Source: Escherichia phage vB_EcoM_ASO1A. Taken from it: a DNA stretch of 64,000 nt. The position numbers and the translations under genes were made by a program. The DNA lies in the sequence record MZ726791.1; one strand, given 5' to 3'. Below are positions 2,633 through 42,737 of this stretch, piece after piece. Position 1 is the first letter of the stretch; each line of letters opens with the position of its first letter. The notes under the pieces were generated by a model. That model made no database searches. It was not told where the DNA came from and saw only the letters and a program-made list of their open reading frames with translations.

Positions 2633-2709
2633 CTCTGTTTAGCTCAGCTTGGTAGAGCGTTCCGTTTGGGGCGGTAAGGCCGGAGGTTCAAGTCCTCCAA
2701 CAGAGACCA
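2633..2709 (+). tRNA. tRNA-Pro (anticodon TGG)
   Basis: Acceptor CTCTGTT/AACAGAG, D-arm GCTCAGCTTGGTAGAGC, T-arm GGAGG-TTCAAGT-CCTCC, CCA encoded. Confidence 0.7.
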
Positions 2710-2716
2710 AATTAAT

Positions 2717-2794
2717 GTTCCAGTAGACAAAATGGTAAAGTCACCACTCTTTCAAAGTGGATATCTGAGGGTTCAAATCCCTTCTGGAACGCCA
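2717..2794 (+). tRNA. tRNA-Glu (anticodon TTC)
   Basis: Acceptor GTTCCAG/CTGGAAC, anticodon stem CCACT/AGTGG loop CTTTCAA, T-arm GAGGG-TTCAAAT-CCCTT, CCA. Confidence 0.7.
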
Positions 2795-2884
2795 GTTTTG
2801 ACAGAAGACCAATTACAGCAAACTTAATCTACTCATCTGACACGAAATCGGACAAAGAAGATATTTGGTCTGGTCATTGAGAAT

Positions 2885-2961
2885 TGCGGGTATAGAGAAA
2901 GGGCGTCTCACATGTCTCATTAGCATGGTATCGGCAGGTTCGACTCCTGCACCCGCCTCCA
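2885..2961 (+). tRNA. tRNA-Met/fMet/Ile2 (anticodon CAT)
   Basis: Anticodon arm CATGT-CTCATTA-GCATG, T-arm GCAGG-TTCGACT-CCTGC, CCA; 1:72 pair mismatched. Confidence 0.6.
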
Positions 2962-3038
2962 ATTTTGCAGAAGACCGTATTCAGCAACAAAATACTTTTT
3001 GCGGATAAAAGAAAAAACACGGTCTGGCAATGTATTAA

Positions 3039-3115
3039 GGTTAGGAAGCACATAAGGTATGTGCGGTCGCCTGTTAAGCGAATGGCACAGGGTTCGAATC
3101 CCTGACTAACCGCCA
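3039..3115 (+). tRNA. tRNA-Asn (anticodon GTT)
   Basis: Acceptor GGTTAGG/ACTAACC, D-stem GCAC/GTGC, anticodon loop CTGTTAA, T-arm CAGGG-TTCGAAT-CCCTG, CCA. Confidence 0.7.
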
Positions 3116-3124
3116 AATTTAAAT

Positions 3125-3212
3125 GTGTCGTTATCCCGTAGATGGTAGCGGTGGGGACTGTAAATCCCTTGTCATTGAGACTCGGTAGGTTCGACTCCTA
3201 CACGGCACACCA
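3125..3212 (+). tRNA. tRNA-Tyr (anticodon GTA), type II with long variable arm
   Basis: Acceptor GTGTCGT/ACGGCAC, anticodon arm GGGGA-CTGTAAA-TCCCT, long variable arm, T-arm GTAGG-TTCGACT-CCTAC, CCA. Confidence 0.65.
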
Positions 3213-3217
3213 ATAAA

Positions 3218-3295
3218 GGTTATGTAGTTTAATTTGGTTAAAATACTCCCCTGTCACGGGAGATGATGAGGGTTCAAATCCCTTCGTAACCGCCA
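3218..3295 (+). tRNA. tRNA-Asp (anticodon GTC)
   Basis: Acceptor GGTTATG/CGTAACC, anticodon arm CTCCC-CTGTCAC-GGGAG, T-arm GAGGG-TTCAAAT-CCCTT, CCA. Confidence 0.65.
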
Positions 3296-3321
3296 ATTTT
3301 GAGAGGGCTATTTAGCCCCTC

Positions 3322-3354
3322 CCTTAAAGGGTTCTTACGAGTATCCTTTAAAGG
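3322..3354 (+). repeat. conserved hairpin element copy A (TTAAAGGG-TTCTTACGAG-TATCCTTTAAAGG)
   Basis: Imperfect palindrome with conserved loop; related copies near 4169, 6671 and 35415. Confidence 0.5.
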
Positions 3355-3356
3355 AG

Positions 3357-3429
3357 CAGAAGACCAAATACAGCAAGAACGTATGAAATTTCAAGCCAAT
3401 TTAATTTTGAAAATTTAAACTTGGTCTGG
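3357..3429 (+). repeat. inter-tRNA spacer unit CAGAAGACC ... GGTCTGG (copy 3 of 4)
   Basis: Same terminal motifs as units at 2802-2873, 2968-3027 and 3443-3574; ends are complementary (AGACC/GGTCT). Confidence 0.45.
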
Positions 3430-3495
3430 CTCAACAAATTTACAGAAGACCGTTTACAGCAAAACTTAAACAATCTATTTCTCCGGTAAAGAAAA

Positions 3496-3560
3496 GGCGA
3501 AGGTTCGATTCCTTCACTCGGCAGATGTCGAGTTGGTGTAATGGTAGCACTTAAGATGAT
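3496..3560 (+). ncRNA. tRNA-like fragments: T-arm hairpin (GAAGG-TTCGATT-CCTTC) + 7-bp acceptor-like hairpin (ACTCGGC/GTCGAGT) + D-arm-like GTGTAATGGTAGCAC; pseudo-tRNA or structured RNA
   Basis: Read directly; elements are in non-canonical order (3' half before 5' half), so no canonical cloverleaf. Confidence 0.3.
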
Positions 3561-3723
3561 AAACAACGGTCTGGTAATTATCTTTGTAGATAAGTTATTA
3601 AGCTTACCTGTGAGTATGCGACCACAAAGGGTGAAAGGGTAAATTCTAGATTTAAACCCAAAAAGGCACATCGCTACAGACCTTAAGCAAGTCTGGGTAG
3701 CTTATCTACAAAGATAATTTAAT

Positions 3724-3798
3724 GGAAGTGTAGCAGAATGGTGATGCGGCAGACTTTTAATCTGACAGGCGATGGGTTCGAATCCCTCCACTTCTACC
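3724..3798 (+). tRNA. tRNA-Lys (anticodon TTT)
   Basis: Acceptor GGAAGTG/CACTTCT, anticodon stem CAGA/TCTG loop CTTTTAA, T-loop TTCGAAT, CCA; T-stem has two weak pairs. Confidence 0.55.
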
Positions 3799-3804
3799 AA
3801 AAAT

Positions 3805-3881
3805 GGTTCAGTCGCAGATAAGGTAATGCAAGGGTTTCATAAGCCCTATGAATGTGGGTTCGATTCCCACCTGAACCTCCA
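3805..3881 (+). tRNA. tRNA-Met/Ile2/fMet (anticodon CAT), second CAT tRNA
   Basis: Acceptor GGTTCAG/CTGAACC, anticodon arm AGGGT-TTCATAA-GCCCT, T-arm GTGGG-TTCGATT-CCCAC, CCA. Confidence 0.65.
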
Positions 3882-3882
3882 A

Positions 3883-3958
3883 GCTGGTATAGTTAAGAAG
3901 GTTATAACACTCCCCTGATAAGGGAACATCGGTGGTTCGATTCCACCTACCAGTACCA
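3883..3958 (+). tRNA. tRNA-Ile (anticodon GAT)
   Basis: Acceptor GCTGGTA/TACCAGT, D-stem GTTA/TAAC, anticodon loop CTGATAA, T-arm GGTGG-TTCGATT-CCACC, CCA. Confidence 0.7.
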
Positions 3959-3973
3959 ATTTCAATAAAGTTG

Positions 3974-4002
3974 TTGACATTGAGATGTGACTACTTTATA
4001 GT
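3974..4002 (+). promoter_or_regulatory. strong sigma70-like promoter (TTGACA - 17 nt - TATAGT) inside tRNA array
   Basis: Read directly; followed by ~200 nt without tRNA or ORF. Confidence 0.6.
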
Positions 4003-4168
4003 AACCTTAGTTTTCGTTGCGTAGCGTCTATTTTGCAAATTTAAAATAAATGCAAACGACAATGTTTTTCTGGCAGTAGCTTGATAGGCTAAACACCAGT
4101 GAGGTCTTCCAATCCCTCATCAAAGAATTTGGCGTACTCGCCCACGGTATGATTAATAAGGTGGGCAT

Positions 4169-4199
4169 CTTTAAGGGCTTTCTAAGAGAGTCTTTAAAG
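4169..4199 (+). repeat. conserved hairpin element copy B (CTTTAAGGGCTTTCTAAGAGAGTCTTTAAAG)
   Basis: Shares AGGG-YTTTCTAAGAGAGTC core and palindromic TTAAAG flanks with copies A and C. Confidence 0.5.
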
Positions 4200-4206
4200 A
4201 TAATTA

Positions 4207-4288
4207 CGGGGCGTATCTCAGCGGTCTTCTAAACCGCCGTTAACCGAGTAAGTGGAGTATGCGGGTTCGAGTCCTGCCGCCTCGACCA
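4207..4288 (+). tRNA. atypical tRNA-like gene, anticodon TCT (Arg) with no canonical D-arm and an extended variable region
   Basis: Acceptor CGGGGCG/CGCCTCG, anticodon arm GCGGT-CTTCTAA-ACCGC, T-arm GCGGG-TTCGAGT-CCTGC, CCA; only 7 nt between acceptor and anticodon stem. Confidence 0.4.
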
Positions 4289-4431
4289 ATTTAGTTAGCA
4301 GATTACTTAGACGACCTAAGCGGGTCTTCCTGTAAGGAGGTGGTCTGTATCTCATGTTTTCCAGAACATGTAAATAATCTGAGAAGGGGCTTTACAGTGT
4401 TGCGAAAATACGGTAAGCTTCGAATTACAGT

Positions 4432-4514
4432 ATGGGACGATGTTAAGACTCTAAGGCATGAGCAACGGCCTCCAAAACCGTTTCAAAGGGGTTCAACTCC
4501 TCCGTCCCATGCCA
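4432..4514 (+). tRNA. tRNA-Trp (anticodon CCA), enlarged D region
   Basis: Acceptor ATGGGAC/GTCCCAT, anticodon stem ACGG/CCGT loop CTCCAAA, T-loop TTCAACT, CCA. Confidence 0.5.
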
Positions 4515-4527
4515 AAGTCTTATTAGG

Positions 4528-4615
4528 GGTAGGTAGCGGCTAATGGTAGCCAAACTGTATTGAAAACAGTTGCCACTGTAGAGATACGGTGAGGGTTCGA
4601 CTCCTTTACTTACCG
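4528..4615 (+). tRNA. tRNA-Ser (anticodon TGA), type II, 3' CCA not encoded
   Basis: Acceptor GGTAGGT/ACTTACC, 3-bp D-stem, anticodon arm ACTGT-ATTGAAA-ACAGT, long variable arm, T-loop TTCGACT. Confidence 0.55.
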
Positions 4616-4769
4616 CCTAATAAGATTTACACCGTCCATGCTTGCTCGCATTTTCGGTTTATCCCTCGTGTATTGTCGTACACTGATAAAGCACCTAGTA
4701 GGTGTCACGGAGAAGAGATAATATCAAGCTCTCCAAAGGTTCTAGTCACCGGATTAAACAAGACTATGC

Positions 4770-4795
4770 AAAGACCTATTTAGGTCTTTTTAGAG
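4770..4795 (+). terminator. rho-independent terminator-like hairpin (AGACCTA/TAGGTCT + T-run)
   Basis: Perfect 7-bp stem followed by TTTTT; ends a ~150 nt non-coding stretch after tRNA-Ser. Confidence 0.5.
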
Positions 4796-4871
4796 GGCTT
4801 CTAAGGTTATTAGTCGCTTGTTGTGGAACCTTGTTGCTCAGGTTCTTAGAAGTTCTCTAAAAAGATTTAAT

Positions 4872-4950
4872 GGGAGATTGACGGCAACTTGGTAGACCTA
4901 TCTCGCTTAGAACGAGATGCTTGAGGGTTCGAATCCCTTGTCTCCTACCA
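4872..4950 (+). tRNA. tRNA with Leu anticodon TAG, Leu-like D-arm but short variable arm
   Basis: Acceptor GGGAGAT/GTCTCCT, anticodon arm TCTCG-CTTAGAA-CGAGA, T-arm GAGGG-TTCGAAT-CCCTT, CCA; D-loop CAACTTGGTAGA. Confidence 0.5.
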
Positions 4951-4957
4951 AATTAAT

Positions 4958-5033
4958 GCAGGTGTAGCAAAATGGTTATGCGGCTGACTCTTAATCAGTA
5001 AGACGATGGGTTCAATTCCCTCCACCTGTACCA
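4958..5033 (+). tRNA. tRNA-Lys (anticodon CTT)
   Basis: Acceptor GCAGGTG/CACCTGT, anticodon stem GCTGA/TCAGT loop CTCTTAA, T-loop TTCAATT, CCA; paralogous to Lys(TTT). Confidence 0.6.
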
Positions 5034-5039
5034 GACATT

Positions 5040-5115
5040 GGGGATGTAGTTTACATGGTTAAAACATAAGTTTTGCAAACTTAAGTACAGGGTTCAATTC
5101 CATGCTTCTCCACCA
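5040..5115 (+). tRNA. tRNA-Ala (anticodon TGC)
   Basis: D-stem GTTT/AAAC, anticodon arm TAAGT-TTTGCAA-ACTTA, T-loop TTCAATT, CCA. Confidence 0.6.
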
Positions 5116-5121
5116 ATTAGT

Positions 5122-5196
5122 GCATCCATAGTTTAAACGGGAAAATTACAGTCTTCCAAACTGAGGTTGAGGGTTCGATTCCCTCTGGATGCTCCA
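5122..5196 (+). tRNA. tRNA-Gly (anticodon TCC)
   Basis: Acceptor GCATCCA/TGGATGC, anticodon stem CAGT/ACTG loop CTTCCAA, T-arm GAGGG-TTCGATT-CCCTC, CCA. Confidence 0.65.
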
Positions 5197-5203
5197 AATT
5201 AAT

Positions 5204-5279
5204 GCTCCTATCGTATAATTGGCTATTACGGTTGCCTTGTAAGCAACTTATCAGGGTTCGAATCCTTGTGGGAGCACCA
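5204..5279 (+). tRNA. tRNA-Thr (anticodon TGT)
   Basis: Acceptor GCTCCTA/TGGGAGC, anticodon arm GTTGC-CTTGTAA-GCAAC, T-arm CAGGG-TTCGAAT-CCTTG, CCA. Confidence 0.7.
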
Positions 5280-5282
5280 ATT

Positions 5283-5372
5283 CAGAGGTCAAGTGAAAGA
5301 CCGCTGGTGTCAACTGAAGACCGTAACAAATTCCACGGAGTTGAGTTAGCGGCACAACTTCAGACCTCTTTC
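5283..5372 (+). ncRNA. candidate structured spacer RNA (long-range stem CAGAGGTC ... GACCTCTG enclosing internal hairpins)
   Basis: Complementary 8-mers ~80 nt apart between tRNA-Thr and tRNA-Val; no ORF, no tRNA fold. Confidence 0.25.
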
Positions 5373-5374
5373 AT

Positions 5375-5449
5375 GCTCGCTTAGTTTATATGGTAAAACA
5401 TCACCCTTACAAGATGAAGAAAAAGGTTCAAGTCCTTTAGTGAGTACCA
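5375..5449 (+). tRNA. tRNA-Val (anticodon TAC)
   Basis: Acceptor GCTCGCT/AGTGAGT, D-stem GTTT/AAAC, anticodon loop CTTACAA, T-arm AAAGG-TTCAAGT-CCTTT, CCA. Confidence 0.65.
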
Positions 5450-5450
5450 T

Positions 5451-5528
5451 GTTCCAGTATCCCAATTGGCAGAGGATGCAAGCTCAAACCTTGTATTAGT
5501 GACGGTTCGAATCCGTCTTGGAACACCA
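5451..5528 (+). tRNA. tRNA with Leu anticodon CAA, short variable arm
   Basis: Acceptor GTTCCAG/TTGGAAC, D-loop CAATTGGCAGA, anticodon stem GCAAG/CTTGT loop CTCAAAC, T-arm GACGG-TTCGAAT-CCGTC, CCA. Confidence 0.5.
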
Positions 5529-5533
5529 ATTTT

Positions 5534-5609
5534 GCAGGATTAGTTCAAATGGATAGAGCAACAGTCTACGAAGCTGTTAATAGGGGTTCGAATCCCTTAT
5601 CCTGCGCCA
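5534..5609 (+). tRNA. tRNA-Arg (anticodon ACG)
   Basis: Acceptor GCAGGAT/ATCCTGC, D-arm GTTC-AAATGGATA-GAGC, anticodon arm ACAGT-CTACGAA-GCTGT, T-arm AGGGG-TTCGAAT-CCCTT, CCA. Confidence 0.7.
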
Positions 5610-5626
5610 GATAAAAAGGTGATACT

Positions 5627-5869
5627 ATGCAAACATTAACAGTAGTTGAACATGAAAACTGTGAGAATATTGAGTTTGTCAGGGTCATTGGTGTTGAACA
5701 CCACATTTTCTTAAAAGTAGGGTACTTATGTGACCCCGCTAGAGTAGAAAGATTTATACGTGATTGTTTTGGTGGTAGACAGCTAAAGAGTGTTATTTTT
5801 GAGACAGTTTTACCAGAAGGTTTAGAAACGAATAATAACATTTATCTCCTTACAAGGATTAGACGATGA
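5627..5869 (+). CDS. hypothetical small protein embedded in tRNA array
   Basis: 80 aa ORF; AAGGTGA SD 7 nt upstream of ATG; directly follows tRNA-Arg. Confidence 0.4.
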   Translation: MQTLTVVEHENCENIEFVRVIGVEHHIFLKVGYLCDPARVERFIRDCFGGRQLKSVIFETVLPEGLETNNNIYLLTRIRR

Positions 5870-6423
5870 GATATTTAAAATATGCTTCATGGATTTTCCT
5901 AGCTTTGCTAGAACCATTAGCAGCAACCTTAGCAGTTATCTTAGCACCTTTCGTAGTTCCATTTTACAGTGAGAAGAAAGGCCACTTACCTTTCGGATTT
6001 AGATGGATGGAGACATATGACAACCCAATTGATGGTGACGAAGGTCATATCGAACGATGGGCTAAGATTAGAAAGATTGGTAAGCTGGGTGTCTACATGC
6101 AGAGAGTCGGATGGCTCTGGAGAAACAAAGCTTATAACTTCTCTTACCATGTATTAGGAAGAGATGTAAAAGATGTTACTAAGTGGAAAGGTAATATCAA
6201 CGTAAGTTCTGACCCTGAAGATAATCAGACAGGTTATCTCCTAATGTGGAACAGTAATGCTTGGGGATTATTCGCTTTTATCCCATCAATTAAAGTCTTT
6301 GGTAAACAATTTTACTGGAGAATTTATATTGGGTGGAAGCTAAAAAGTGTTGTCCCAGAAGAAAGAGCATTCTCAAGGGAAAGAGTTATGTTGGCATTCT
6401 TTATTCATCCACTAAGAAAGTAA
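5866..6423 (+). CDS. hypothetical membrane protein (N-terminal hydrophobic segment, Trp-rich)
   Basis: 185 aa; ATG with AAGGA SD; start overlaps upstream ORF stop (ATGA). Confidence 0.55.
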   Translation: MRYLKYASWIFLALLEPLAATLAVILAPFVVPFYSEKKGHLPFGFRWMETYDNPIDGDEGHIERWAKIRKIGKLGVYMQRVGWLWRNKAYNFSYHVLGRDVKDVTKWKGNINVSSDPEDNQTGYLLMWNSNAWGLFAFIPSIKVFGKQFYWRIYIGWKLKSVVPEERAFSRERVMLAFFIHPLRK

Positions 6424-6431
6424 AGATTTAA

Positions 6432-6507
6432 AGGGGATTAGTTTACAAGGTTAAAACCTCGGTCTTTGAAATCGAAGAAGTTGGTTCAATTCCAACATCC
6501 CCCGCCA
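6432..6507 (+). tRNA. tRNA-Gln (anticodon TTG)
   Basis: D-stem GTTT/AAAC, anticodon arm TCGGT-CTTTGAA-ATCGA, T-arm GTTGG-TTCAATT-CCAAC, CCA; 1:72 mismatch. Confidence 0.6.
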
Positions 6508-6509
6508 AT

Positions 6510-6588
6510 GCTCCATTACTCCAATTGGCAGAGAGGCCAGACTTAAAATCTGTGTTATGTATCGGTTCGAATCCGATATGGAGTACCA
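6510..6588 (+). tRNA. tRNA with Leu anticodon TAA, short variable arm
   Basis: Acceptor GCTCCAT/ATGGAGT, D-loop AATTGGCAGA, anticodon stem CAGA/TCTG loop CTTAAAA, T-arm ATCGG-TTCGAAT-CCGAT, CCA. Confidence 0.5.
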
Positions 6589-6593
6589 AATTT

Positions 6594-6669
6594 AGCGGTA
6601 TAGCATAACTGGCAATGCAACAGTCTCTGAAGCTGTCCTATTAAGGTTCAAATCCTTATGCCGCTGCCA
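6594..6669 (+). tRNA. tRNA-Gln (anticodon CTG)
   Basis: Acceptor AGCGGTA/TGCCGCT, anticodon arm ACAGT-CTCTGAA-GCTGT, T-arm TAAGG-TTCAAAT-CCTTA, CCA. Confidence 0.65.
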
Positions 6670-6670
6670 C

Positions 6671-6701
6671 TTCTAAGGGTTCTTACGAGAGTCCTTAAAT
6701 G
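6671..6701 (+). repeat. conserved hairpin element copy C (TTCTAAGGGTTCTTACGAGAGTCCTTAAATG)
   Basis: Near-identical loop (GGGTTCTTACGAG) to copy A. Confidence 0.5.
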
Positions 6702-6776
6702 TGGCCTTATCATAAATGGTAATGACCCATGCTGTGAACATGGTCTATACGGGTTCAAATCCCGTAGGTCACCCCA
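6701..6776 (+). tRNA. tRNA-His (anticodon GTG)
   Basis: Acceptor GTGGCCT/AGGTCAC, D-stem TCAT/ATGA, anticodon arm CCATG-CTGTGAA-CATGG, T-arm ACGGG-TTCAAAT-CCCGT, CCA; no encoded G-1. Confidence 0.7.
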
Positions 6777-6781
6777 ATTTA

Positions 6782-6858
6782 TAGTCCAAGTAGCTTATAT
6801 GGTTAAAGCGCGTGTCTGAAAAACATGAGAAGAGGGTTCAAATCCCACTGGACTACCA
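6782..6858 (+). tRNA. tRNA-Phe (anticodon GAA), 3' CCA not fully encoded
   Basis: Acceptor TAGTCCA/TGGACTA, D-stem GCTT/AAGC, anticodon arm CGTGT-CTGAAAA-ACATG, T-loop TTCAAAT; odd 8-9 spacing. Confidence 0.55.
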
Positions 6859-6874
6859 ATTTCAAAGGTGCTTA

Positions 6875-7609
6875 ATGAAAGAGATGACAGAACAAGGTAA
6901 GGAGATTTTTAATCTCTTAAAAACCGGTAAAGGGTTTTCTAACCCACTTATTACTGGTGCAGCAGTTCTCGGTGGAACCGTAGCTGCCTCTACATCACTT
7001 GTAAGCTCTATTAGTTCTGTAACAGACCCTACAATGCAGGAGAAACTTGTTGCTGCTGGACTTACAACAGTCCTTCTAAACAGCTTTACAACAAGCCTTA
7101 CAAGCACTACAGCAACTACTAAGACCCTGACAGACTACGGTCAAAAGTCTATTGATGAGTTTTCATCACGTATGCAGGTAGCAAAGGGATATTCCAATGT
7201 TATGAGTGCAGCAGGAGAACAAGTTGGTTGTACACCGTTCAGTGGTATTATGGGTGTTGCTACAGAATATGGTCAAAAAGCTATTGATACAATTAACAGT
7301 ACACTAGAGAGTGTTAACGATGTATTAAGTGACTTACAAGACGCTATTGATGAGGGTCTTGATACTATTTCTGATTTAGCTAATCAGGCTGTTAGTAAGA
7401 TTAATGAAGGTATTTCAAAGATTACAGCTTATGCAGATGAAGTTGTGCAGATGATTGAAGAAGAAGCTGCCCTTATTGCAGAGTACCTTAAAACGAATAT
7501 CAATGGGTTCTTAGCAGGTATCTTACCAGACTGGTTTGACGATGCCTGTAAAACTGGTGTAATTGACACTATTGCAACACCAGAAATGAAGAACGCATTA
7601 CAGAAATAA
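6875..7609 (+). CDS. hypothetical protein (Ala/Ser/Thr-rich N-terminal half, acidic helical C-terminal half)
   Basis: Track ORF 6812-7609 trimmed to in-frame ATG (Met22) with AAAGGTG SD, because the first 45 nt overlap tRNA-Phe. Confidence 0.55.
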   Translation: MKEMTEQGKEIFNLLKTGKGFSNPLITGAAVLGGTVAASTSLVSSISSVTDPTMQEKLVAAGLTTVLLNSFTTSLTSTTATTKTLTDYGQKSIDEFSSRMQVAKGYSNVMSAAGEQVGCTPFSGIMGVATEYGQKAIDTINSTLESVNDVLSDLQDAIDEGLDTISDLANQAVSKINEGISKITAYADEVVQMIEEEAALIAEYLKTNINGFLAGILPDWFDDACKTGVIDTIATPEMKNALQK

Positions 7610-7611
7610 AT

Positions 7612-7704
7612 GGAAGATTAACCCTAAAAGGTAAGGGAGCAGTTTGCTAAACTGCCAGTAGCTGAGAAATCGGTGTACCAGTTCAAGTCTGGTATCTTCC
7701 TCCA
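7612..7704 (+). tRNA. tRNA-Ser (anticodon GCT), type II
   Basis: Acceptor GGAAGAT/ATCTTCC, anticodon arm GCAGT-TTGCTAA-ACTGC, long variable arm, T-arm ACCAG-TTCAAGT-CTGGT, CCA. Confidence 0.7.
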
Positions 7705-7708
7705 ATTT

Positions 7709-7784
7709 GAATCCGTGACAGAAATGGCTATGTGCCTGTCTGCAAAACAGGTTTATAAGGGTTCGAGTCCCTTCGGATTCTCCA
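7709..7784 (+). tRNA. tRNA-Cys (anticodon GCA)
   Basis: Acceptor GAATCCG/CGGATTC, anticodon arm CCTGT-CTGCAAA-ACAGG, T-arm AAGGG-TTCGAGT-CCCTT, CCA. Confidence 0.7.
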
Positions 7785-19482: not shown

Positions 19483-27498
<8,016 letters not shown>

Positions 27499-27500
27499 TA

Positions 27501-28673
27501 ATGGCAGTAGGTGAAATTCAAATTAGTGCCTTGCCTCAAGCAGCCTTACCAATTGACCTTAGTGATATCTTCCATCTTAAGCAGGGTATTGAGGATAAGA
27601 GGTGTACTCTTGAGCAATTACTTGCTCCACACGCAAGCCTAAGAAATAACCCTCATGGTGTTACTAAAACACAAATTGGTTTAGATAATGTTATTAATGC
27701 TCTTCAGTTAGTCGCTGCAAATAACTTATCAGATATTGTTAATGTAGCTGAGGCAAGAGCAAATCTACAGATTATGTCTTCAGAAGAGGTTAATAACCTT
27801 GTCCAGCAACATATCAAGGACAAGAGTAACCCACACAATACAACTAAGGCACAGGTTGGTTTAAGTAATGTTCAGAACTGGACAACATCTAATCTGTATA
27901 ACGAAGATGCAGATAAGTATGCTACAGCAAGAGCAGTAAATAACTTGTACAAGGCTGTTCAGGCTTCTTATCCAGTAGGTACTATCCATCTTTCTATGAA
28001 CTCTGCAAACCCTTCTACATACTTAATTTGTGGAGGTACTTGGGAGTTAGTTTCAAAAGGTAGGGCATTGGTTGGCTATGACTCTGATACAAGACCAGCA
28101 GGTTCTGTATTTGGTGCTTCAACTGTCACTTTGTCAGTTAATAACATGCCTCAACACTCCCACTCTGTGTCTCTTAGCGGTGGTGGTCACACTCATAATG
28201 CAACTGTGTCAATCTCAGTTTTTGATTATGGGGCTAAGACTACAAACTCTTTTGACTATGGGACAAAAGCTACTAACACAACTGGTAACCATACACACAG
28301 TGTGTCAGGTAACACAAGCACCAATGGTACTCACAACCATGATGTGTATCCTAGAGAAAATGATGGTACTGGTAATGCTGTAGCTGACTCTGATGGTGGT
28401 GGTGCAAGAAGGACATCAAGGACTTCTAGTGACGGTGCGCACTCACACAGCTTTAACGTCACATCTGGTGCATCAGGTGACCACAGCCACACGGTTGGTA
28501 TTGGTGCTCACAGCCATACAGTTGGTATTGGTTCACACACGCACAGTGGCACTGTAACAGTTTCTTCTTCTGAACATACACATAGTGGTAATACAAATAG
28601 TGTTGGTGGAGGTCAGGCAGTTAATATTGAGCAGCCATCCTTCGTACTGTATGTATGGCAGAGAACAGCTTAA
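27501..28673 (+). CDS. tail fibre protein with His-x-His repeat tip
   Basis: 390 aa; repeated HSHSV/HTHS/HSHTVGIGAHSHTVGIGSHTHSG motifs; C-terminus ends ...WQRTA like next gene. Confidence 0.7.
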   Translation: MAVGEIQISALPQAALPIDLSDIFHLKQGIEDKRCTLEQLLAPHASLRNNPHGVTKTQIGLDNVINALQLVAANNLSDIVNVAEARANLQIMSSEEVNNLVQQHIKDKSNPHNTTKAQVGLSNVQNWTTSNLYNEDADKYATARAVNNLYKAVQASYPVGTIHLSMNSANPSTYLICGGTWELVSKGRALVGYDSDTRPAGSVFGASTVTLSVNNMPQHSHSVSLSGGGHTHNATVSISVFDYGAKTTNSFDYGTKATNTTGNHTHSVSGNTSTNGTHNHDVYPRENDGTGNAVADSDGGGARRTSRTSSDGAHSHSFNVTSGASGDHSHTVGIGAHSHTVGIGSHTHSGTVTVSSSEHTHSGNTNSVGGGQAVNIEQPSFVLYVWQRTA

Positions 28674-28683
28674 TTTCTTTACA

Positions 28684-28706
28684 GGGGCTATAAAGCCCCT
28701 TTTAAG
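28684..28706 (+). terminator. terminator/attenuator hairpin between the two tail fibre genes (GGGGCT/AGCCCC + TTTT)
   Basis: Read directly. Confidence 0.4.
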
Positions 28707-28719
28707 AGGAAAATATATA

Positions 28720-31074
28720 ATGGCAGATTACAAGTTGAGTGAATTAAACTCAATCGATACAATCCGTTCAGATGACCTTCTTCATGTCAGGGTTAAAAAG
28801 AGACCTGAAATGTTGGGTGATGAAGACCGTCGAATGACCTATCAAGATTTCTTAGCATCTTTCAAGCTTGAAAGATTTGTTCAGATTGCTGGTAGTACTA
28901 TGACGGGTGACTTAGGGATTGTTAAGTTACTCTATGGTGGCAAGGCAGTATTTGACCCAACAGGTTCTTCTGAGATTACTATTGGGGATGTTTTAAAGAC
29001 TTTTAAAATCAACGCAAATGGCCTTAAACTAACTATCGCAGATGCTTCAAGGTCAGCAACTGTTTATCATACTCTGAATAAACCAAGCCCTAATGAACTT
29101 GGTATGAGAACTAATAAAGAGAATGATGCAAGATACTCAAAATTAGCTGTAAATAATACCTTTAGAGGTACTCAAGCTATCCTCTCTGACAATGAAGCGC
29201 TCATTATTAAAAATATCACTCAAGGTGCCCCACTCTATCTTCGTGGTCAAGATGCAGATGGTACTAACAGATGGTATCTAGGTAATGATAATAGGGGCAC
29301 AAATAATCTTGTATTGAAGAATGTAAAGTCTGACGTTTCAATTGCTATTTTAGAGAATTTGGTGACAGTCAACAGAACTCTTCAAATTGCTGGCCAAGTT
29401 CAGCCTTCAAGTTTTGCTAACTTAGATGCTAGGTATTTTACCCAGACAGCAGCTAATCAGAGATTTGCGCAGTTAGCTGGTAATAACACTTTTACTGGTA
29501 CTAACACTTTCTCTAATTTTGTTGCTAAGAAGAATGCTGAAGCCATCACTCTACAAAATGTGGACACTGCCCCCTCTTTATATATTCGAGCAAGAAAGTC
29601 AGATGGGAATTATAAGTGGTACATTGGTAATGACGGTGATGAGAACATTTTAAAAATCTATAACTATCTAACAAAAACACAAGTCTCACTAGGTAACACT
29701 ATTGCCATGAGCAAAACAGTTCAAATTGATGGTCAAGTACAACCTTCTGATTGGACTAACATTGATTCTAGATATATTCCGGCAGCCACTTTGAGTAATC
29801 TCCCTAAACTTAATGTGTCTAATACTTTCACAAATGTGCAAACTATTGTATCTAACAACGAGGGTTTGGTATTAAGGAACTTGACACAGGGGCGGCCACT
29901 ATATATCCGTGGTGTTGATACTGAGAATGTTTCTAGATGGTGGTTAGGTGTAGGTGGTTCAAACTCTAATGTGGTAACACTTAACAACAACTATTCTAAC
30001 ACTAAAATCTCACTTGGTGGCTCATCAGTAATGACTAACAAGAGCTTAGCTATTACTGGTCAAGTACAACCTTCTGACTTCTCTAACTTAGATGCTAGAT
30101 ACTATACCCAAGCTGCCGCAAACGCAAGATATATGCTTGCAAGCATCACTGGTTCGGCTTCTGAAGCAGATGGTGGTGGTGGTGTTGCATGGGATGCAAA
30201 AACAGGTCTTTATAAGGTTACTAACACCACTGGACGGTATTCTTCACTTGTATATCACATGTTTTTAGGGACTGGTTCTACACCGTCTGCACAATTAAAG
30301 TTTTCGTTTAAAAATGGTGGGATGTGGTATAGAGCATCAAGAGATGCCTATGGCTTCGAAGTTAATTGGTCTAAAGTTTACACGGAAGCACAAAAACCAA
30401 CCCCTTCAGAGATTGGTGCATACACTAAAGCTGAAACTGACCAGAAAATTGCAACAGCAATTAGTGACTCTACAGACCTTAATAAAATCTATCCAGTAGG
30501 TATTGTAACGTGGTTTAACAGTAATGTTGACCCTAACACAGCACTACCTGGGTTAACTTGGACGTACCTGAATAATGGTGTTGGTAGAACTATCAGAATC
30601 GCAGCAGCAAACGGTTCAGATGTTGCTACAACTGGTGGTTCAGACTCTGTGACGTTAGCTGTTGGAAACTTACCATCACATACCCATAGTTTCTCTGCTA
30701 CCACTTCATCTTTTGATTATGGTACGAAGAACACTAATAGTACTGGTGCGCACACTCACTCAGTTAGTGGTACTGCTGCAACTTCTGGGCAACACGCACA
30801 CAGAATTTCACAGGGTGACAACGCTAACGTTCCATCAGGTAGGGTCGCATCTTCGAACTCTGCTCAGACTCATGTTGGATGGACTGAAAATGATGGTGCT
30901 CACACCCACTCAGTTAGTGGTACTGCTGCATCTGCTGGGCAACATGCTCACTCTGTAGGCATTGGTGCTCACAGGCACACAGTCAGTGGTAACACTGGTG
31001 GTACAGGTTCTGGGTCAGCATTTAGTGTTACTAACCAGTTCTATAAGTTAATGGCTTGGGTGAGAACTGCTTAA
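28720..31074 (+). CDS. long tail fibre protein with three tandem ~110 aa repeats and HxH-rich tip
   Basis: Track ORF 28585 trimmed to ATG Met46 (AGAGGAAAA SD); repeats containing GQVQPS; HTHS/HAHS motifs; ends ...WVRTA. Confidence 0.7.
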   Translation: MADYKLSELNSIDTIRSDDLLHVRVKKRPEMLGDEDRRMTYQDFLASFKLERFVQIAGSTMTGDLGIVKLLYGGKAVFDPTGSSEITIGDVLKTFKINANGLKLTIADASRSATVYHTLNKPSPNELGMRTNKENDARYSKLAVNNTFRGTQAILSDNEALIIKNITQGAPLYLRGQDADGTNRWYLGNDNRGTNNLVLKNVKSDVSIAILENLVTVNRTLQIAGQVQPSSFANLDARYFTQTAANQRFAQLAGNNTFTGTNTFSNFVAKKNAEAITLQNVDTAPSLYIRARKSDGNYKWYIGNDGDENILKIYNYLTKTQVSLGNTIAMSKTVQIDGQVQPSDWTNIDSRYIPAATLSNLPKLNVSNTFTNVQTIVSNNEGLVLRNLTQGRPLYIRGVDTENVSRWWLGVGGSNSNVVTLNNNYSNTKISLGGSSVMTNKSLAITGQVQPSDFSNLDARYYTQAAANARYMLASITGSASEADGGGGVAWDAKTGLYKVTNTTGRYSSLVYHMFLGTGSTPSAQLKFSFKNGGMWYRASRDAYGFEVNWSKVYTEAQKPTPSEIGAYTKAETDQKIATAISDSTDLNKIYPVGIVTWFNSNVDPNTALPGLTWTYLNNGVGRTIRIAAANGSDVATTGGSDSVTLAVGNLPSHTHSFSATTSSFDYGTKNTNSTGAHTHSVSGTAATSGQHAHRISQGDNANVPSGRVASSNSAQTHVGWTENDGAHTHSVSGTAASAGQHAHSVGIGAHRHTVSGNTGGTGSGSAFSVTNQFYKLMAWVRTA

Positions 31075-31153
31075 TCCCTTGTTGACTGATTGTTAAGATG
31101 GTGTTAATATTCTTTATGGGTATTCTCACCATCTTGGCTGATGAGGTGATTAA

Positions 31154-31348
31154 ATGCCTACAATCCTAGCAATTCTTCTAAAAAATCTAGGTAGCTTCTT
31201 CTGGAAACTCATTTTATCCCTTCTAAGTGAATACATGATTGAGAAAGTGTTCTTTAAGCTTGCAAGATACCTTGCGAGTAAAACAGACACACCTATTGAT
31301 GATGAGTTCGTAGATAACTTAGAAAAAGCTTTTAAGGGGGAGAAATAA
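31154..31348 (+). CDS. small hydrophobic protein (holin-like?)
   Basis: 64 aa, GAGGTGA SD, N-terminal hydrophobic segment. Confidence 0.4.
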   Translation: MPTILAILLKNLGSFFWKLILSLLSEYMIEKVFFKLARYLASKTDTPIDDEFVDNLEKAFKGEK

Positions 31349-31720
31349 ATGAAGTGGCTAGAGGAAGCTTTTAAAAATAATATTGGTGCAATTGTAGTTG
31401 GTATTTTTAGTGTTATTGGGATGTATACCACGATGCAAGTTTCAAGTGGTAAACAAGAAGTGTCTGTCACAACAAAGTTACAGCAGTTGGATAATTATTC
31501 CAAAAGTAACTATTCAGCTATTCGTGATTTACAGTCTGACATGAGACTGATTCAGCTAGGGATGGAGAACCAGAAAGTTCAGTTAGAGAATGTTAAGGGT
31601 GAAAACGCAAAACTTACCAAAACTCTTGATAAATTCTCTGACAGTGTGAACAATCTGGCTCAATCAGTATCAGCCCTCCAAGCTATTACTGAGAAGAACA
31701 CAAAGAATACTGAAAAATAA
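31349..31720 (+). CDS. membrane-anchored coiled-coil protein (spanin-like?)
   Basis: 123 aa; N-terminal hydrophobic helix then coiled-coil; AAGGGGGAG SD. Confidence 0.4.
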   Translation: MKWLEEAFKNNIGAIVVGIFSVIGMYTTMQVSSGKQEVSVTTKLQQLDNYSKSNYSAIRDLQSDMRLIQLGMENQKVQLENVKGENAKLTKTLDKFSDSVNNLAQSVSALQAITEKNTKNTEK

Positions 31721-31726
31721 AGTTTA

Positions 31727-31760
31727 AGGCTCCTTTTTACGGGAGCCTTTTTTGTTTTAC
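31727..31760. terminator. bidirectional rho-independent terminator at convergent gene boundary
   Basis: GGCTCC ... GGAGCC hairpin flanked by T-runs on both strands. Confidence 0.6.
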
Positions 31761-32656
31761 TTACCTACTGACAGAGGTGCTTCAATCTTCCCTGCATGTT
31801 GGTAGTTGTTAATGCCACCAATAAAATCACTTGCAGTAAGGTGTTTTAAATCACTTAGAGTGTTAAGCTGCACACCAATCTCAAAAGTAGGTGCATGGAA
31901 CTCTTCATTATTCATCAGTTCATAAACCTGTTTCATATGGTTCTGATAAATCTGAGTATCTCCAAAGACGCCTATCAAGTACCGTGGAGTGTATCCAGTC
32001 ATCTTGCAAAGAACTTCCAGAATAAAACCATAAGATGCAATGTTAAATGGAAGTCCTAAAAAGGTGTCTACAGAACGTTGATACCATTGTAAGTCAACTT
32101 CACCTTCGTTAGTGATATAAATCTGAAACAGAACATGACAAGGTGCTAAAGCCATTGAGTTAGCTGCAATATCTGCTGCATTCCAAGCATTAACAAGCAT
32201 GTAACGGTCTGTGATATCACCTTTCATCTTCGTTACTAAGGTCTCTAACTGGTCTACAACACAACCATTATGACCTTCAAAGTTTCTCCACTGAACCCCG
32301 TAGATTCTCCCACCTGCATCCTCTAACCAGTCTTGTTCAGAAGAATAGTTAGAGCTTAACCAGCGTTTAAAATCATCTGACCAGATAGTCCAACGTTCTC
32401 CATCATTTTCACCCCAAGTGCGATAACGGAGTTCACCAAGCTTATTCTCGCCATTCAGGAACCATAAAGCTTCCCCAATAACTTGCCGTGTAAACACCTG
32501 TTTAGATGTTAAGAGCGGGAAACCAGTTCGCATATCAAAACGAAACTGAGGTGGAGCAAATGCAGAGATAACATCTCCAGTTCGTGTAGTACGCAGTTCA
32601 CCAACGGATAAAACATGGTTCAGGATATTTTTGTAACTTGAATCTGCTTGTGACAT
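31757..32656 (-). CDS. thyA: thymidylate synthase
   Basis: ThyA motifs ALAPCH, YQRSVDTFLGLPFNIASY, GDTQIYQNH (Asn retained); adjacent DHFR. Confidence 0.85.
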   Translation of the reverse strand: MSQADSSYKNILNHVLSVGELRTTRTGDVISAFAPPQFRFDMRTGFPLLTSKQVFTRQVIGEALWFLNGENKLGELRYRTWGENDGERWTIWSDDFKRWLSSNYSSEQDWLEDAGGRIYGVQWRNFEGHNGCVVDQLETLVTKMKGDITDRYMLVNAWNAADIAANSMALAPCHVLFQIYITNEGEVDLQWYQRSVDTFLGLPFNIASYGFILEVLCKMTGYTPRYLIGVFGDTQIYQNHMKQVYELMNNEEFHAPTFEIGVQLNTLSDLKHLTASDFIGGINNYQHAGKIEAPLSVGK

Positions 32657-41936: not shown

Positions 41937-42737
41937 ATGAATATCGATGTAGAAAAGATGCTTGAAGAGAAAGGTATTGACGAAGCATTTTTAATCAATG
42001 CCGTAGAAAGCATGGCTATGATTCTTCGTGGTAACAACTACACAGAACAGTTTATGCCTGCAAGCTATAACTTGCCTGAAGACAAGTCTGATAACGGTGC
42101 TTTTGCAGAACAGGTTAACATGATGCTTTGCGACAAAACACTTGCTTTAGCATCTATCGTTGTAGGTGTTGATGCCCTTGCAGAGTTCATTTTTTATGAG
42201 ATGCAGAAAAATGATTATATTGCCATGACCACTGAAGAAAAAGACTTGCTACTACTCGCAGGTAACGATGAACTAATTGACCTGTTAATTTCATCAACTA
42301 GTGCTGTTATGGCTGCTCTTGAGAAGCGCATGGAAGAAAAACTTTCACGATATGAAAAACTTGATTGGGGTGTAGAAGAATTAAACCCACGAATCAAAGA
42401 AATTATCCAGCAAACTAAAGAGTCTTTGGAAGAAGCTGTTGAAAATGACTCTGTAGCTGATATAGAACCTCTTCAGGTGAAAGTTGCACTGATGATTCCA
42501 GCTATCTCTACGATGATGAATATCGTTGCACTAATCCAACTTTCACAGATGATGGGTGTAAGTATTGAGTTCATTGAAGAGATGACTGGTGGCGTTAGTA
42601 TGCAAGCAATAAATGATGTTTTGGTGAACATTGGTGCTTCAATCATTGAAGAGAAACTACGCATTAACTTCGGTGATGATTTTGTGAAGCAAATCTCAGC
42701 TATGGCTGAAAAAGAGTATGCTGAGCAACTGCACTAA
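41937..42737 (+). CDS. hypothetical highly acidic early protein
   Basis: 266 aa, Glu/Asp-rich; terminator-like hairpin downstream. Confidence 0.55.
   Translation: MNIDVEKMLEEKGIDEAFLINAVESMAMILRGNNYTEQFMPASYNLPEDKSDNGAFAEQVNMMLCDKTLALASIVVGVDALAEFIFYEMQKNDYIAMTTEEKDLLLLAGNDELIDLLISSTSAVMAALEKRMEEKLSRYEKLDWGVEELNPRIKEIIQQTKESLEEAVENDSVADIEPLQVKVALMIPAISTMMNIVALIQLSQMMGVSIEFIEEMTGGVSMQAINDVLVNIGASIIEEKLRINFGDDFVKQISAMAEKEYAEQLH

Follow-up and report, generated by a model that had tools for sequence, protein, structure and literature searches.

The question raised by this locus is what two adjacent phage genes encode, and how their products would work, when both proteins finish in a histidine-rich region. 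We studied positions 27,501 to 31,074 of a 64,000-nucleotide (nt) window, i.e., the whole stretch of DNA analysed, from Escherichia phage vB_EcoM_ASO1A (sequence record MZ726791.1). An earlier annotation of these letters, made without database searches and called here the sequence-only reading, had taken the pair for tail fibre genes. Our results indicated that they very probably encode the two baseplate fibres of a Felixounavirus, one short and one long, each with a metal-stapled, receptor-binding needle tip of the phage T4 gp37 type. The basis for this assignment was homology, motif register, repeat structure, the pattern of variation among relatives and synteny.

A megablast search of a phage collection with positions 27001-31500 matched 259 records, nearly all of them Felixounavirus, i.e., Felix O1-like myophages infecting Escherichia, Salmonella and Shigella. 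The best DNA match was Escherichia phage VpaE1_ev035, 97.0% identical across the whole 4.5 kb. Overall, the fibre locus was 86-97% identical in DNA to Felixounavirus genomes in which both genes are annotated as tail fibres, in agreement with the proposal of two tail fibre genes. Gene organization was likewise that of the group: the annotated genomes of ASO1B and Felix O1 present baseplate wedge genes, a 100-aa (amino acid) protein, a fibre of ~390 aa and a fibre of ~785 aa, followed by two small open reading frames (ORFs) and a convergent thymidylate synthase/dihydrofolate reductase (td/frd) block, and the window showed the same order, td/frd block included. The succession of proteins of 489 aa, 287 aa and 100 aa, short fibre and long fibre also parallels gp23 to gp27 of Bas63 (Escherichia phage JohannRWettstein), which are wedge 2 (gp23), wedge 1 (gp24, ~285 aa), platform (gp25), short fibre (gp26) and long fibre (gp27) (PMC12609058). 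The short fibre is orthologous to VpaE1 gp74, Felix O1 ORF76 and Bas63 gp26, and the long fibre to VpaE1 gp75, Felix O1 ORF77 and Bas63 gp27. By synteny, the 100-aa protein would be the counterpart of Bas63 gp25, the T4 gp9-like platform on which the long fibre docks. Note that the mechanical ORF of the long fibre opens at a GTG at 28585; the real start is the ATG at 28720, as in all relatives, ten bases after a Shine-Dalgarno sequence AAGAGG (28704-28709).

The histidine-x-histidine (HxH) motifs of T4 bind iron, and dense motifs of this kind had been claimed for the Gly/Ser/Thr-rich C-terminal regions of both proteins. Counting bore this out: the short fibre had nine motifs and the long fibre six (positions in Table 1), whereas whole-protein shuffling (10,000 per protein) gave means of 1.4 and 0.3, respectively. 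When the His-rich C-terminal region alone was shuffled the means were 1.8 and 1.2 and the maxima 8 and 6; the short-fibre count exceeded all 10,000 of these shuffles, whereas the long-fibre count merely equalled the maximum. The composition of the HxH regions was 16% S, 13-14.5% G, 14% T and 10% H, with 13% A in addition in the long protein. Both regions were homologous to the T4 gp37 tip (PDB 2XGF): phmmer searches against PDB sequences matched it to residues 146-362 of the short fibre (E 3.1e-28) and residues 647-763 of the long fibre (E 1.5e-18). In tblastn searches, full-length T4 gp37 matched only the two fibre tips within the window, and its residues 800-1011 matched both fibre genes. 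A three-way alignment placed the T4 motifs in register, seven of seven in the short fibre and six of seven in the long one. Relative to the T4 tip, the long fibre therefore had one HxH fewer and the short fibre two extra towards the collar end, at residue 230 in a 13-aa insertion of the outward strand and at residue 359 in the return strand. The T4-type HxH tips suggested by the sequence-only reading were in this way substantiated, and cryo-electron microscopy (cryo-EM) of Bas63 found the same architecture (PMC12609058).

Conservation of the tips followed the same plan. The consensus of 62 diverse homologues had HxH at all nine sites of the short fibre and eight histidines were at least 90% conserved, H219, H221, H230 and H232 reaching this level, whereas neighbouring residues varied; in a set of 120 homologues the number of motifs ranged from 0 to 11, nine being the commonest (57/120). 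The ending W(Q/V)RTA, which had been noticed as common to both proteins, was indeed present in both (...YVWQRTA in the short fibre, ...MAWVRTA in the long one), and W386 and R388 of the short fibre were invariant in the 62 homologues. However, the C-terminal R and A are invariant also in T4 gp37, which ends ...IVRLA, and 104 of 120 homologues finished in R-x-A or R-x-S. Judged from these alignments, the W-x-R-T-A ending is therefore a family-wide feature and not a special link between the two genes. In a conservation profile drawn over about 30 related loci, the least conserved stretch of each tip lay between the two HxH blocks (residues 281-320 in the short fibre, 681-740 in the long one), the last 10-40 residues were 0.83-0.99 conserved and the collar was also highly conserved. 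For T4, the Bas63 study describes iron bound by the HxH motifs in the axis of the needle and a chain that turns round in a small head domain (PMC12609058); the profile fits a chain that would reverse at a variable head, with its C-terminus returning to the collar. The long-fibre collar aligned with that of the short fibre (38% identity overall, E 4e-28).

Two short DNA features were seen within the HxH regions. A 27-nt tandem unit at 28476-28547 (~2.3 copies) encodes GxHxHTVGI in the short fibre, and positions 28488-28522 and 30949-30983 were 83% identical across 35 nt of HxH motif common to both fibre genes. The latter identity accounts for each record being matched at a second place by the DNA search, and it could permit the two tips to recombine.

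The long fibre had been proposed to contain three tandem repeats of ~110 aa, each with GQVQPS(D/S)(F/W). These were confirmed as units of 99-113 aa, in which GQVQPSSF, GQVQPSDW and GQVQPSDF begin at residues 225, 338 and 447, and each unit is composed of a conserved linker (GQVQPSD-x-NLDARY) and a variable beta domain. Smith-Waterman alignments gave identities of 36/93, 42/92 and 38/106 (36-46%), with z-scores of 20-33 relative to shuffles. At the DNA level the similarity was confined to a 71-nt core (61-75% identity) and Tandem Repeats Finder did not call the ~330-nt period, from which we infer that the duplication is old. The Pfam family PF20744 ('gp37_trimer') was found in the three stretches (E 1.7e-59; 198.3 bits against a gathering cut-off of 21.7), and a profile built from 28 diverse repeat units matched the pyramid region of T7 gp17 (4A0T, 4A0U, 7BOZ; residues 368-435) with E of 1.1e-07 to 1.5e-07 (hmmsearch). 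The next domain corresponded to PF12604 ('gp37_C') at residues 487-585, and residues 477-581 aligned with the phage Mu fibre protein S (PDB 8JU3, residues 330-430; E 2.2e-21). The 'gp37' in both Pfam names was considered as a sign of T4 gp37 families and rejected, because T4 gp37 itself matched neither in a Pfam scan. The Mu S-like domain ends in KPTPSEIG and the shorter N-terminal shaft domain in KPSPNELG, so that the shaft comprises five domains (the N-terminal domain, three repeats and the Mu S-like domain), the same number as in the Bas63 map. A sequence relation of the repeats to T4 gp34 was not found, either by hhalign (probability 0.1%, E 0.41) or by tblastn in the window. In the short fibre, residues 36-137 were matched by many tail-protein PHROGs and by distant phages; the repeated shaft motif there (Table 1) looks like the 'triple alpha-helix and turn' type, and triple-helix-and-turn shaft motifs have been described in the Bas63 short fibre (PMC12609058).

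How these elements vary was inspected in 29 IMG/VR loci (L003-L031) and Felix O1 (L033). The short fibre had nine HxH in 26 of 30 loci and seven in the other 4; this tally counts the window itself and leaves out L020, whose short fibre also has nine and in which no long-fibre ORF longer than 500 aa was called. The long fibre had six HxH in most relatives, four in six loci and seven in one. The long-fibre ORF of L014 (IMGVR_UViG_2706796256_000001) was truncated at 541 aa, and that of Salmonella phage Si3 has been flagged as likely incomplete (PMC12609058). PF20744 was matched by 28/28 related long fibres, and a hidden Markov model of the repeat detected exactly three full copies in 30/30 loci; beyond the third copy, the shared linker gave just a weak, partial match. 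Across the genus the short fibre was more conserved than the long one, in which variation was centred on the repeat bodies, the fifth domain and the head, the linkers being conserved. The fifth cassette was the most variable in the genus: PF12604 was present in 13 of 28 long fibres and non-matching sequence occupied its place in the remaining 15.

The pairwise-identity matrices of the three repeat bodies, the fifth shaft domain and the head, calculated for 28 distinct fibres, correlated with each other at r = 0.07-0.36 only, whereas the N-terminus, collar and C-terminal end of the long fibre tracked the genome backbone (r = 0.89-0.95). In 48 of the 378 pairwise comparisons between phages, identity was 90% or more in one cassette and 50% or less in another. 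The five long-fibre cassettes (29119-30900) thus assort almost independently between Felixounavirus genomes. The sequence-only reading had suggested modular host-range determinants and had proposed to compare repeat number among related phages; modularity is present as sequence replacement of cassettes, but repeat copy number does not contribute to it, being the same in every locus. These data also allow a more speculative scheme, which we regard as doubtful: the long fibre would be a multi-cassette adhesin rather than a rod with a single active tip, its GQVQPSD-x-NLDARY linkers would serve as recombination joints, and its shaft domains would offer lateral sites for surface glycans (LPS, i.e., lipopolysaccharide, or O-antigen) under diversifying selection as at the tip. 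The published accounts of Felixounavirus fibres considered here mention that the shaft is variable, but neither that its cassettes assort independently nor that it binds; the independent assortment is the only mildly new point here.

The assignment of both proteins as gp37-tipped fibres has to be weighed against other explanations and against some results that do not favour it. The His/Gly/Ser/Thr-rich regions could be low-complexity disordered tails in which HxH spacing has no structural role. Their biased composition (S+G+T ~45%) would agree with this, as would the low confidence over residues 259-329 in an AlphaFold2 (AF2) model of the short-fibre monomer, for which the 62-sequence alignment was used. 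The model as a whole reached a mean predicted local distance difference test (pLDDT) score of 68 and a predicted template modelling (pTM) score of 0.31, with the collar best (pLDDT 85-92) and the head below 50. Yet the in-register homology to a crystal structure with iron-binding motifs effectively refutes disorder, and the conservation of individual histidines and the comparison with region shuffles, clear for the short fibre and at its limit for the long one, point the same way; we consider disordered tails extremely improbable. Three results nevertheless weigh against gp37-type fibres. Foldseek retrieved no PDB match at E <=0.001 for the AF2 monomer model, 2XGF included, the best match being the T4 gp10 C-terminal domain (E 0.02); the model, only moderately confident, did not confirm the short-fibre fold independently; and tblastn found no homologue of the T4 gp38 chaperone in the 64-kb window (gp57A/Tfa-type chaperones were not searched). 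The poor AF2 and Foldseek outcome is expected, because a monomer was modelled of what would be an intertwined trimer, so that sequence evidence carries the assignment; the lack of a gp38 homologue in the window would mean that the assembly route differs from that of T4. The proximity to gp10 leads to another possibility, that the 390-aa protein serves chiefly to build the baseplate, like T4 gp10 or gp12, rather than as a primary receptor binder, and that host range depends on the long fibre alone. Gp10_C was the only Pfam match of the short fibre above the curated cut-off (E 4e-17), PDB sequences of T4 gp10 gave weak matches, the Bas63 short fibre is attached to a wedge protein and folded up along the sheath (PMC12609058), and the higher conservation of the short fibre across the genus would suit such a role. 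Against this, its tip matched gp37 (2XGF) with E 3e-28 versus E 3e-05 for gp10, and a full nine-HxH needle with a hypervariable head is the signature of a receptor-contacting tip. A mainly structural role is consequently unlikely, and secondary, irreversible binding of the gp12 kind would still count as receptor binding. The receptor-binding role put forward before is supported for both proteins through the gp37-type tips and the Bas63 orthologues.

Two other explanations concern single elements of the locus. The ~110-aa repeats could differ in copy number between related phages and so adjust fibre length or host range, since they are tandem and long-fibre length ranges from 777 to 849 aa among relatives. 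The presence of three full copies in all 30 loci refutes this for the loci sampled, and the authors of the Bas63 study likewise concluded from AlphaFold3 models that the repeat number is fixed (PMC12609058); as the repeats end at nearly the same residue everywhere, the length differences must lie C-terminal of them, and a variable array is very improbable. The other element is the hairpin between the two genes, described in the sequence-only reading as terminator-like. The hairpin is present and conserved, but its function as a working rho-independent terminator, either separating two fibre transcription units or attenuating read-through into the long-fibre gene, seems improbable to us. It does have a GC-rich 7-bp stem with five G-C pairs, a 4-nt loop and four U after the stem, and its folding energy, a short outer helix included, is -16.1 kcal/mol (z = -2.8). 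The stem was unchanged in 17 distinct spacer variants in which the loop took many sequences, and the Felix O1-type hairpin keeps it with a G-U pair and a one-base shift. On the other hand, the U-run is short and the terminator scan, which calls five T in eight, did not report the hairpin. In L019, L023, L029 and L031 the run is replaced by UAGAAAG or UAUAAAG and the stem is kept; this loss of the U-run beside a stem that is invariant across the genus makes a terminator doubtful. Moreover, no promoter-like site lies between the hairpin and the long-fibre ATG, merely 19 nt downstream; the phage requires equal numbers of both fibres; and the annotations of ASO1B and AYO145A place a predicted terminator after the long fibre and none at the intergenic hairpin (deposited terminators were predicted with WebGeSTer, and for some in ASO1B with TransTermHP too). 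RNAalifold on the 17 variants gave no evidence of covariation, the core stem being invariant, and the weak outer helix (CUU/AAG), which would touch the long-fibre Shine-Dalgarno sequence, had one pair only with changes on both sides. A terminator role is thus possible but weak, and the hairpin may instead act in messenger RNA stabilisation, in RNA processing or in translational coupling via the outer helix.

Taking trimer state, metal binding, docking sites and LPS receptor from the work on T4, Bas63 and VpaE1, the two gp37-tipped fibres could function as follows. Each would be a homotrimer, the short one docking with its N-terminus on the large wedge protein and the long one on a trimer of the 100-aa platform protein; by analogy with Bas63, the N-terminal region of the long fibre would include the baseplate-binding part. 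The C-terminal ~200-250 residues would form the T4 gp37-type tip, in which the three chains would leave a collar as a thin needle of beta structure, reverse direction in a small, variable, receptor-touching head and return, so that the W-x-R-T-A end packs near the collar. At each HxH the three chains would place six histidines on one metal ion in the needle core (Fe2+ in T4). About nine such sites are thus expected in the short fibre and six in the long fibre, and the metals would hold the needle rigid like staples. In the long-fibre shaft, conserved linkers would alternate with variable beta domains (the three PF20744 repeats and the Mu S-like domain), and host range would be set by swaps of head and shaft cassettes between phages. 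The receptor is likely the LPS core, in analogy to VpaE1, whose receptor is a truncated LPS core (PMC4690856).

Table 1. Coordinates of the genes, protein domains and intergenic hairpin of the fibre locus (window positions; residues counted in each protein).
Feature	Position	Strand	Evidence or remarks
100-aa protein directly upstream of short fibre	27196..27498	+	phrog_4141, E 9.5e-62 (family of unknown function)
Short tail fibre gene, 390 aa + stop	27501..28673	+	phrog_2097 'tail fiber protein', E 4.7e-137
Short fibre: shaft region, two NPHxxTKxQ(I/V)GLxNV copies (aa 50-64, 110-124)	27648..27872	+	Regular-expression positions
Short fibre: collar-like domain, aa 146-218	27936..28154	+	Aligns with 2XGF collar and T4 gp10 C-terminal domain
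Short fibre: ascending needle strand, HxH at aa 219, 230, 264, 278	28155..28340	+	Motif positions, three-way alignment
Short fibre: predicted distal head, aa 281-313, putative receptor-contacting turn	28341..28439	+	T4 head position; conservation minimum 0.40-0.46
Short fibre: descending needle strand, HxH at aa 314, 328, 337, 346, 359	28440..28583	+	Contains 27-nt tandem unit
Short fibre: C-terminal return segment ending YVWQRTA	28584..28670	+	Invariant W386/R388; R-x-A as in T4 gp37
Intergenic hairpin AGGGGCU-AUAA-AGCCCCU, 7-bp stem, 4-nt loop	28683..28700	+	Followed by UUU, A and Shine-Dalgarno AAGAGG
Long tail fibre gene, 784 aa + stop	28720..31074	+	phrog_4277, end-to-end match, 1318 bits
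Long fibre: conserved N-terminal region, aa 1-133	28720..29118	+	Conservation 0.89-0.94; first shaft domain ends KPSPNELG
Long fibre: repeat R1, aa 134-232, PF20744 unit ending GQVQPSSF	29119..29415	+	Pfam, alignment, profile
Long fibre: repeat R2, aa 233-345, PF20744 unit ending GQVQPSDW	29416..29754	+	Pfam, alignment, profile
Long fibre: repeat R3, aa 346-454, PF20744 unit ending GQVQPSDF	29755..30081	+	Pfam, alignment, profile
Long fibre: fifth shaft cassette, aa 455-585, PF12604 gp37_C	30082..30474	+	E 8.8e-18; conservation 0.25-0.49
Long fibre: collar-like domain, aa 586-653	30475..30678	+	Aligns with short-fibre collar and T4 gp37; conservation ~0.90
Long fibre: ascending needle strand, HxH at aa 654, 678, 692	30679..30801	+	Motif positions, three-way alignment
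Long fibre: predicted head domain, aa 695-727	30802..30900	+	Between HxH blocks; conservation minimum 0.32-0.47
Long fibre: descending needle strand (HxH at aa 728, 742, 751) and return segment ending MAWVRTA	30901..31071	+	Motifs, alignment

At 31082-31138, directly after the long-fibre stop codon, a promoter-like site (TTGACT-17 nt-TAATAT with an upstream TG) overlapped a long, strongly folding hairpin (31092-31138); the segment 31075-31150 folded at -28.2 kcal/mol (z = -5.3). This hairpin was almost invariant in 30 related loci, and the annotations of ASO1B and AYO145A list it among the rho-independent terminators, yet no T-run follows it. A scan of the whole window at Rfam gathering thresholds reported transfer RNAs (tRNAs) alone and nothing at this or the intergenic hairpin. 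The two small ORFs 3' of the long fibre (31154-31720; 64 and 123 aa) matched only PHROGs of unknown function; their N-termini looked hydrophobic by eye, and a holin is annotated in the matched stretch of one relative. They are followed at 31726-31749 by a bidirectional terminator-like hairpin (9-bp stem, T-runs on both strands) between the late block of the positive strand and the convergent td/frd genes of the negative strand. The strand switch coincides with a GC-skew reversal near 32,000, and the skew reverses back near 42,000. Positions 2633-7784 of the window contained 25 tRNA genes, all in the positive strand (ARAGORN; 23 by Rfam). The array includes a tRNA-His(GTG) at 6701-6776; the fibre tips are ~10% histidine.

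This phage group is used for typing and biocontrol of Salmonella and E. coli. For annotation, the value of the present analysis lies in exact coordinates for the two head segments and the five exchangeable cassettes that would decide host range; the conserved linkers could be splice points for the engineering of chimeric fibres.

The fibre anatomy described here is correct but was already known from VpaE1 in 2015 and Bas63 in 2025. Bas63, VpaE1 and Felix O1 belong to the same genus and share gene order and domain plan with the fibres in the window. In VpaE1, residues 146-362 of gp74 and 584-780 of gp75 were reported as homologous to the T4 adhesin, and both proteins were found in the virion proteome (Simoliunas et al. 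2015, PMC4690856). The short fibre was 97% identical to VpaE1 gp74, whereas the long-fibre cassettes differed from those of VpaE1 (L007), the R1 and R2 bodies being ~31-32% and the head 30% identical. In the Bas63 cryo-EM structure both fibres carry a collar, an HxH needle and a head, and they dock to wedge 2 and to the gp9-like platform; the long fibre has five beta-helix repeat domains, and the short fibre was reported with seven HxH, as compared with nine here (PMC12609058). To these accounts we add the independent assortment of cassettes and an invariant hairpin stem with a non-invariant U-run, as modest leads and not as discoveries.

More distant systems resemble the two fibres part by part. 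The T4 gp37 tip (2XGF) shares collar and needle homology, a variable head between the strands and the hydrophobic-x-R-x-A end, but overall identity in the three-way alignment was 41-43%. The tip is carried here by much shorter proteins; as for gp38, no match to the partner proteins gp34, gp35 and gp36 of T4 was found in the window by tblastn. The beta-helix domains of the Bas63 long fibre and their 'triple helix and turn' linkers have been described as structurally very similar to T4 gp34, PDB 5NXH (PMC12609058), and Figure 4 of the gp34 paper sets its triangular domains beside the P22 tailspike and the C-terminal part of T7 gp17. This likeness to gp34 is structural and reported for Bas63, whereas a likeness in sequence to the long fibre of the window was undetected. 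Compared by sequence, T7 gp17 has one pyramid domain next to its tip, whereas the long fibre has three in tandem in the shaft, separated by linkers. Finally, the domain homologous to the phage Mu S protein (8JU3) lies here as a cassette inside the shaft, with a gp37-type tip after it.

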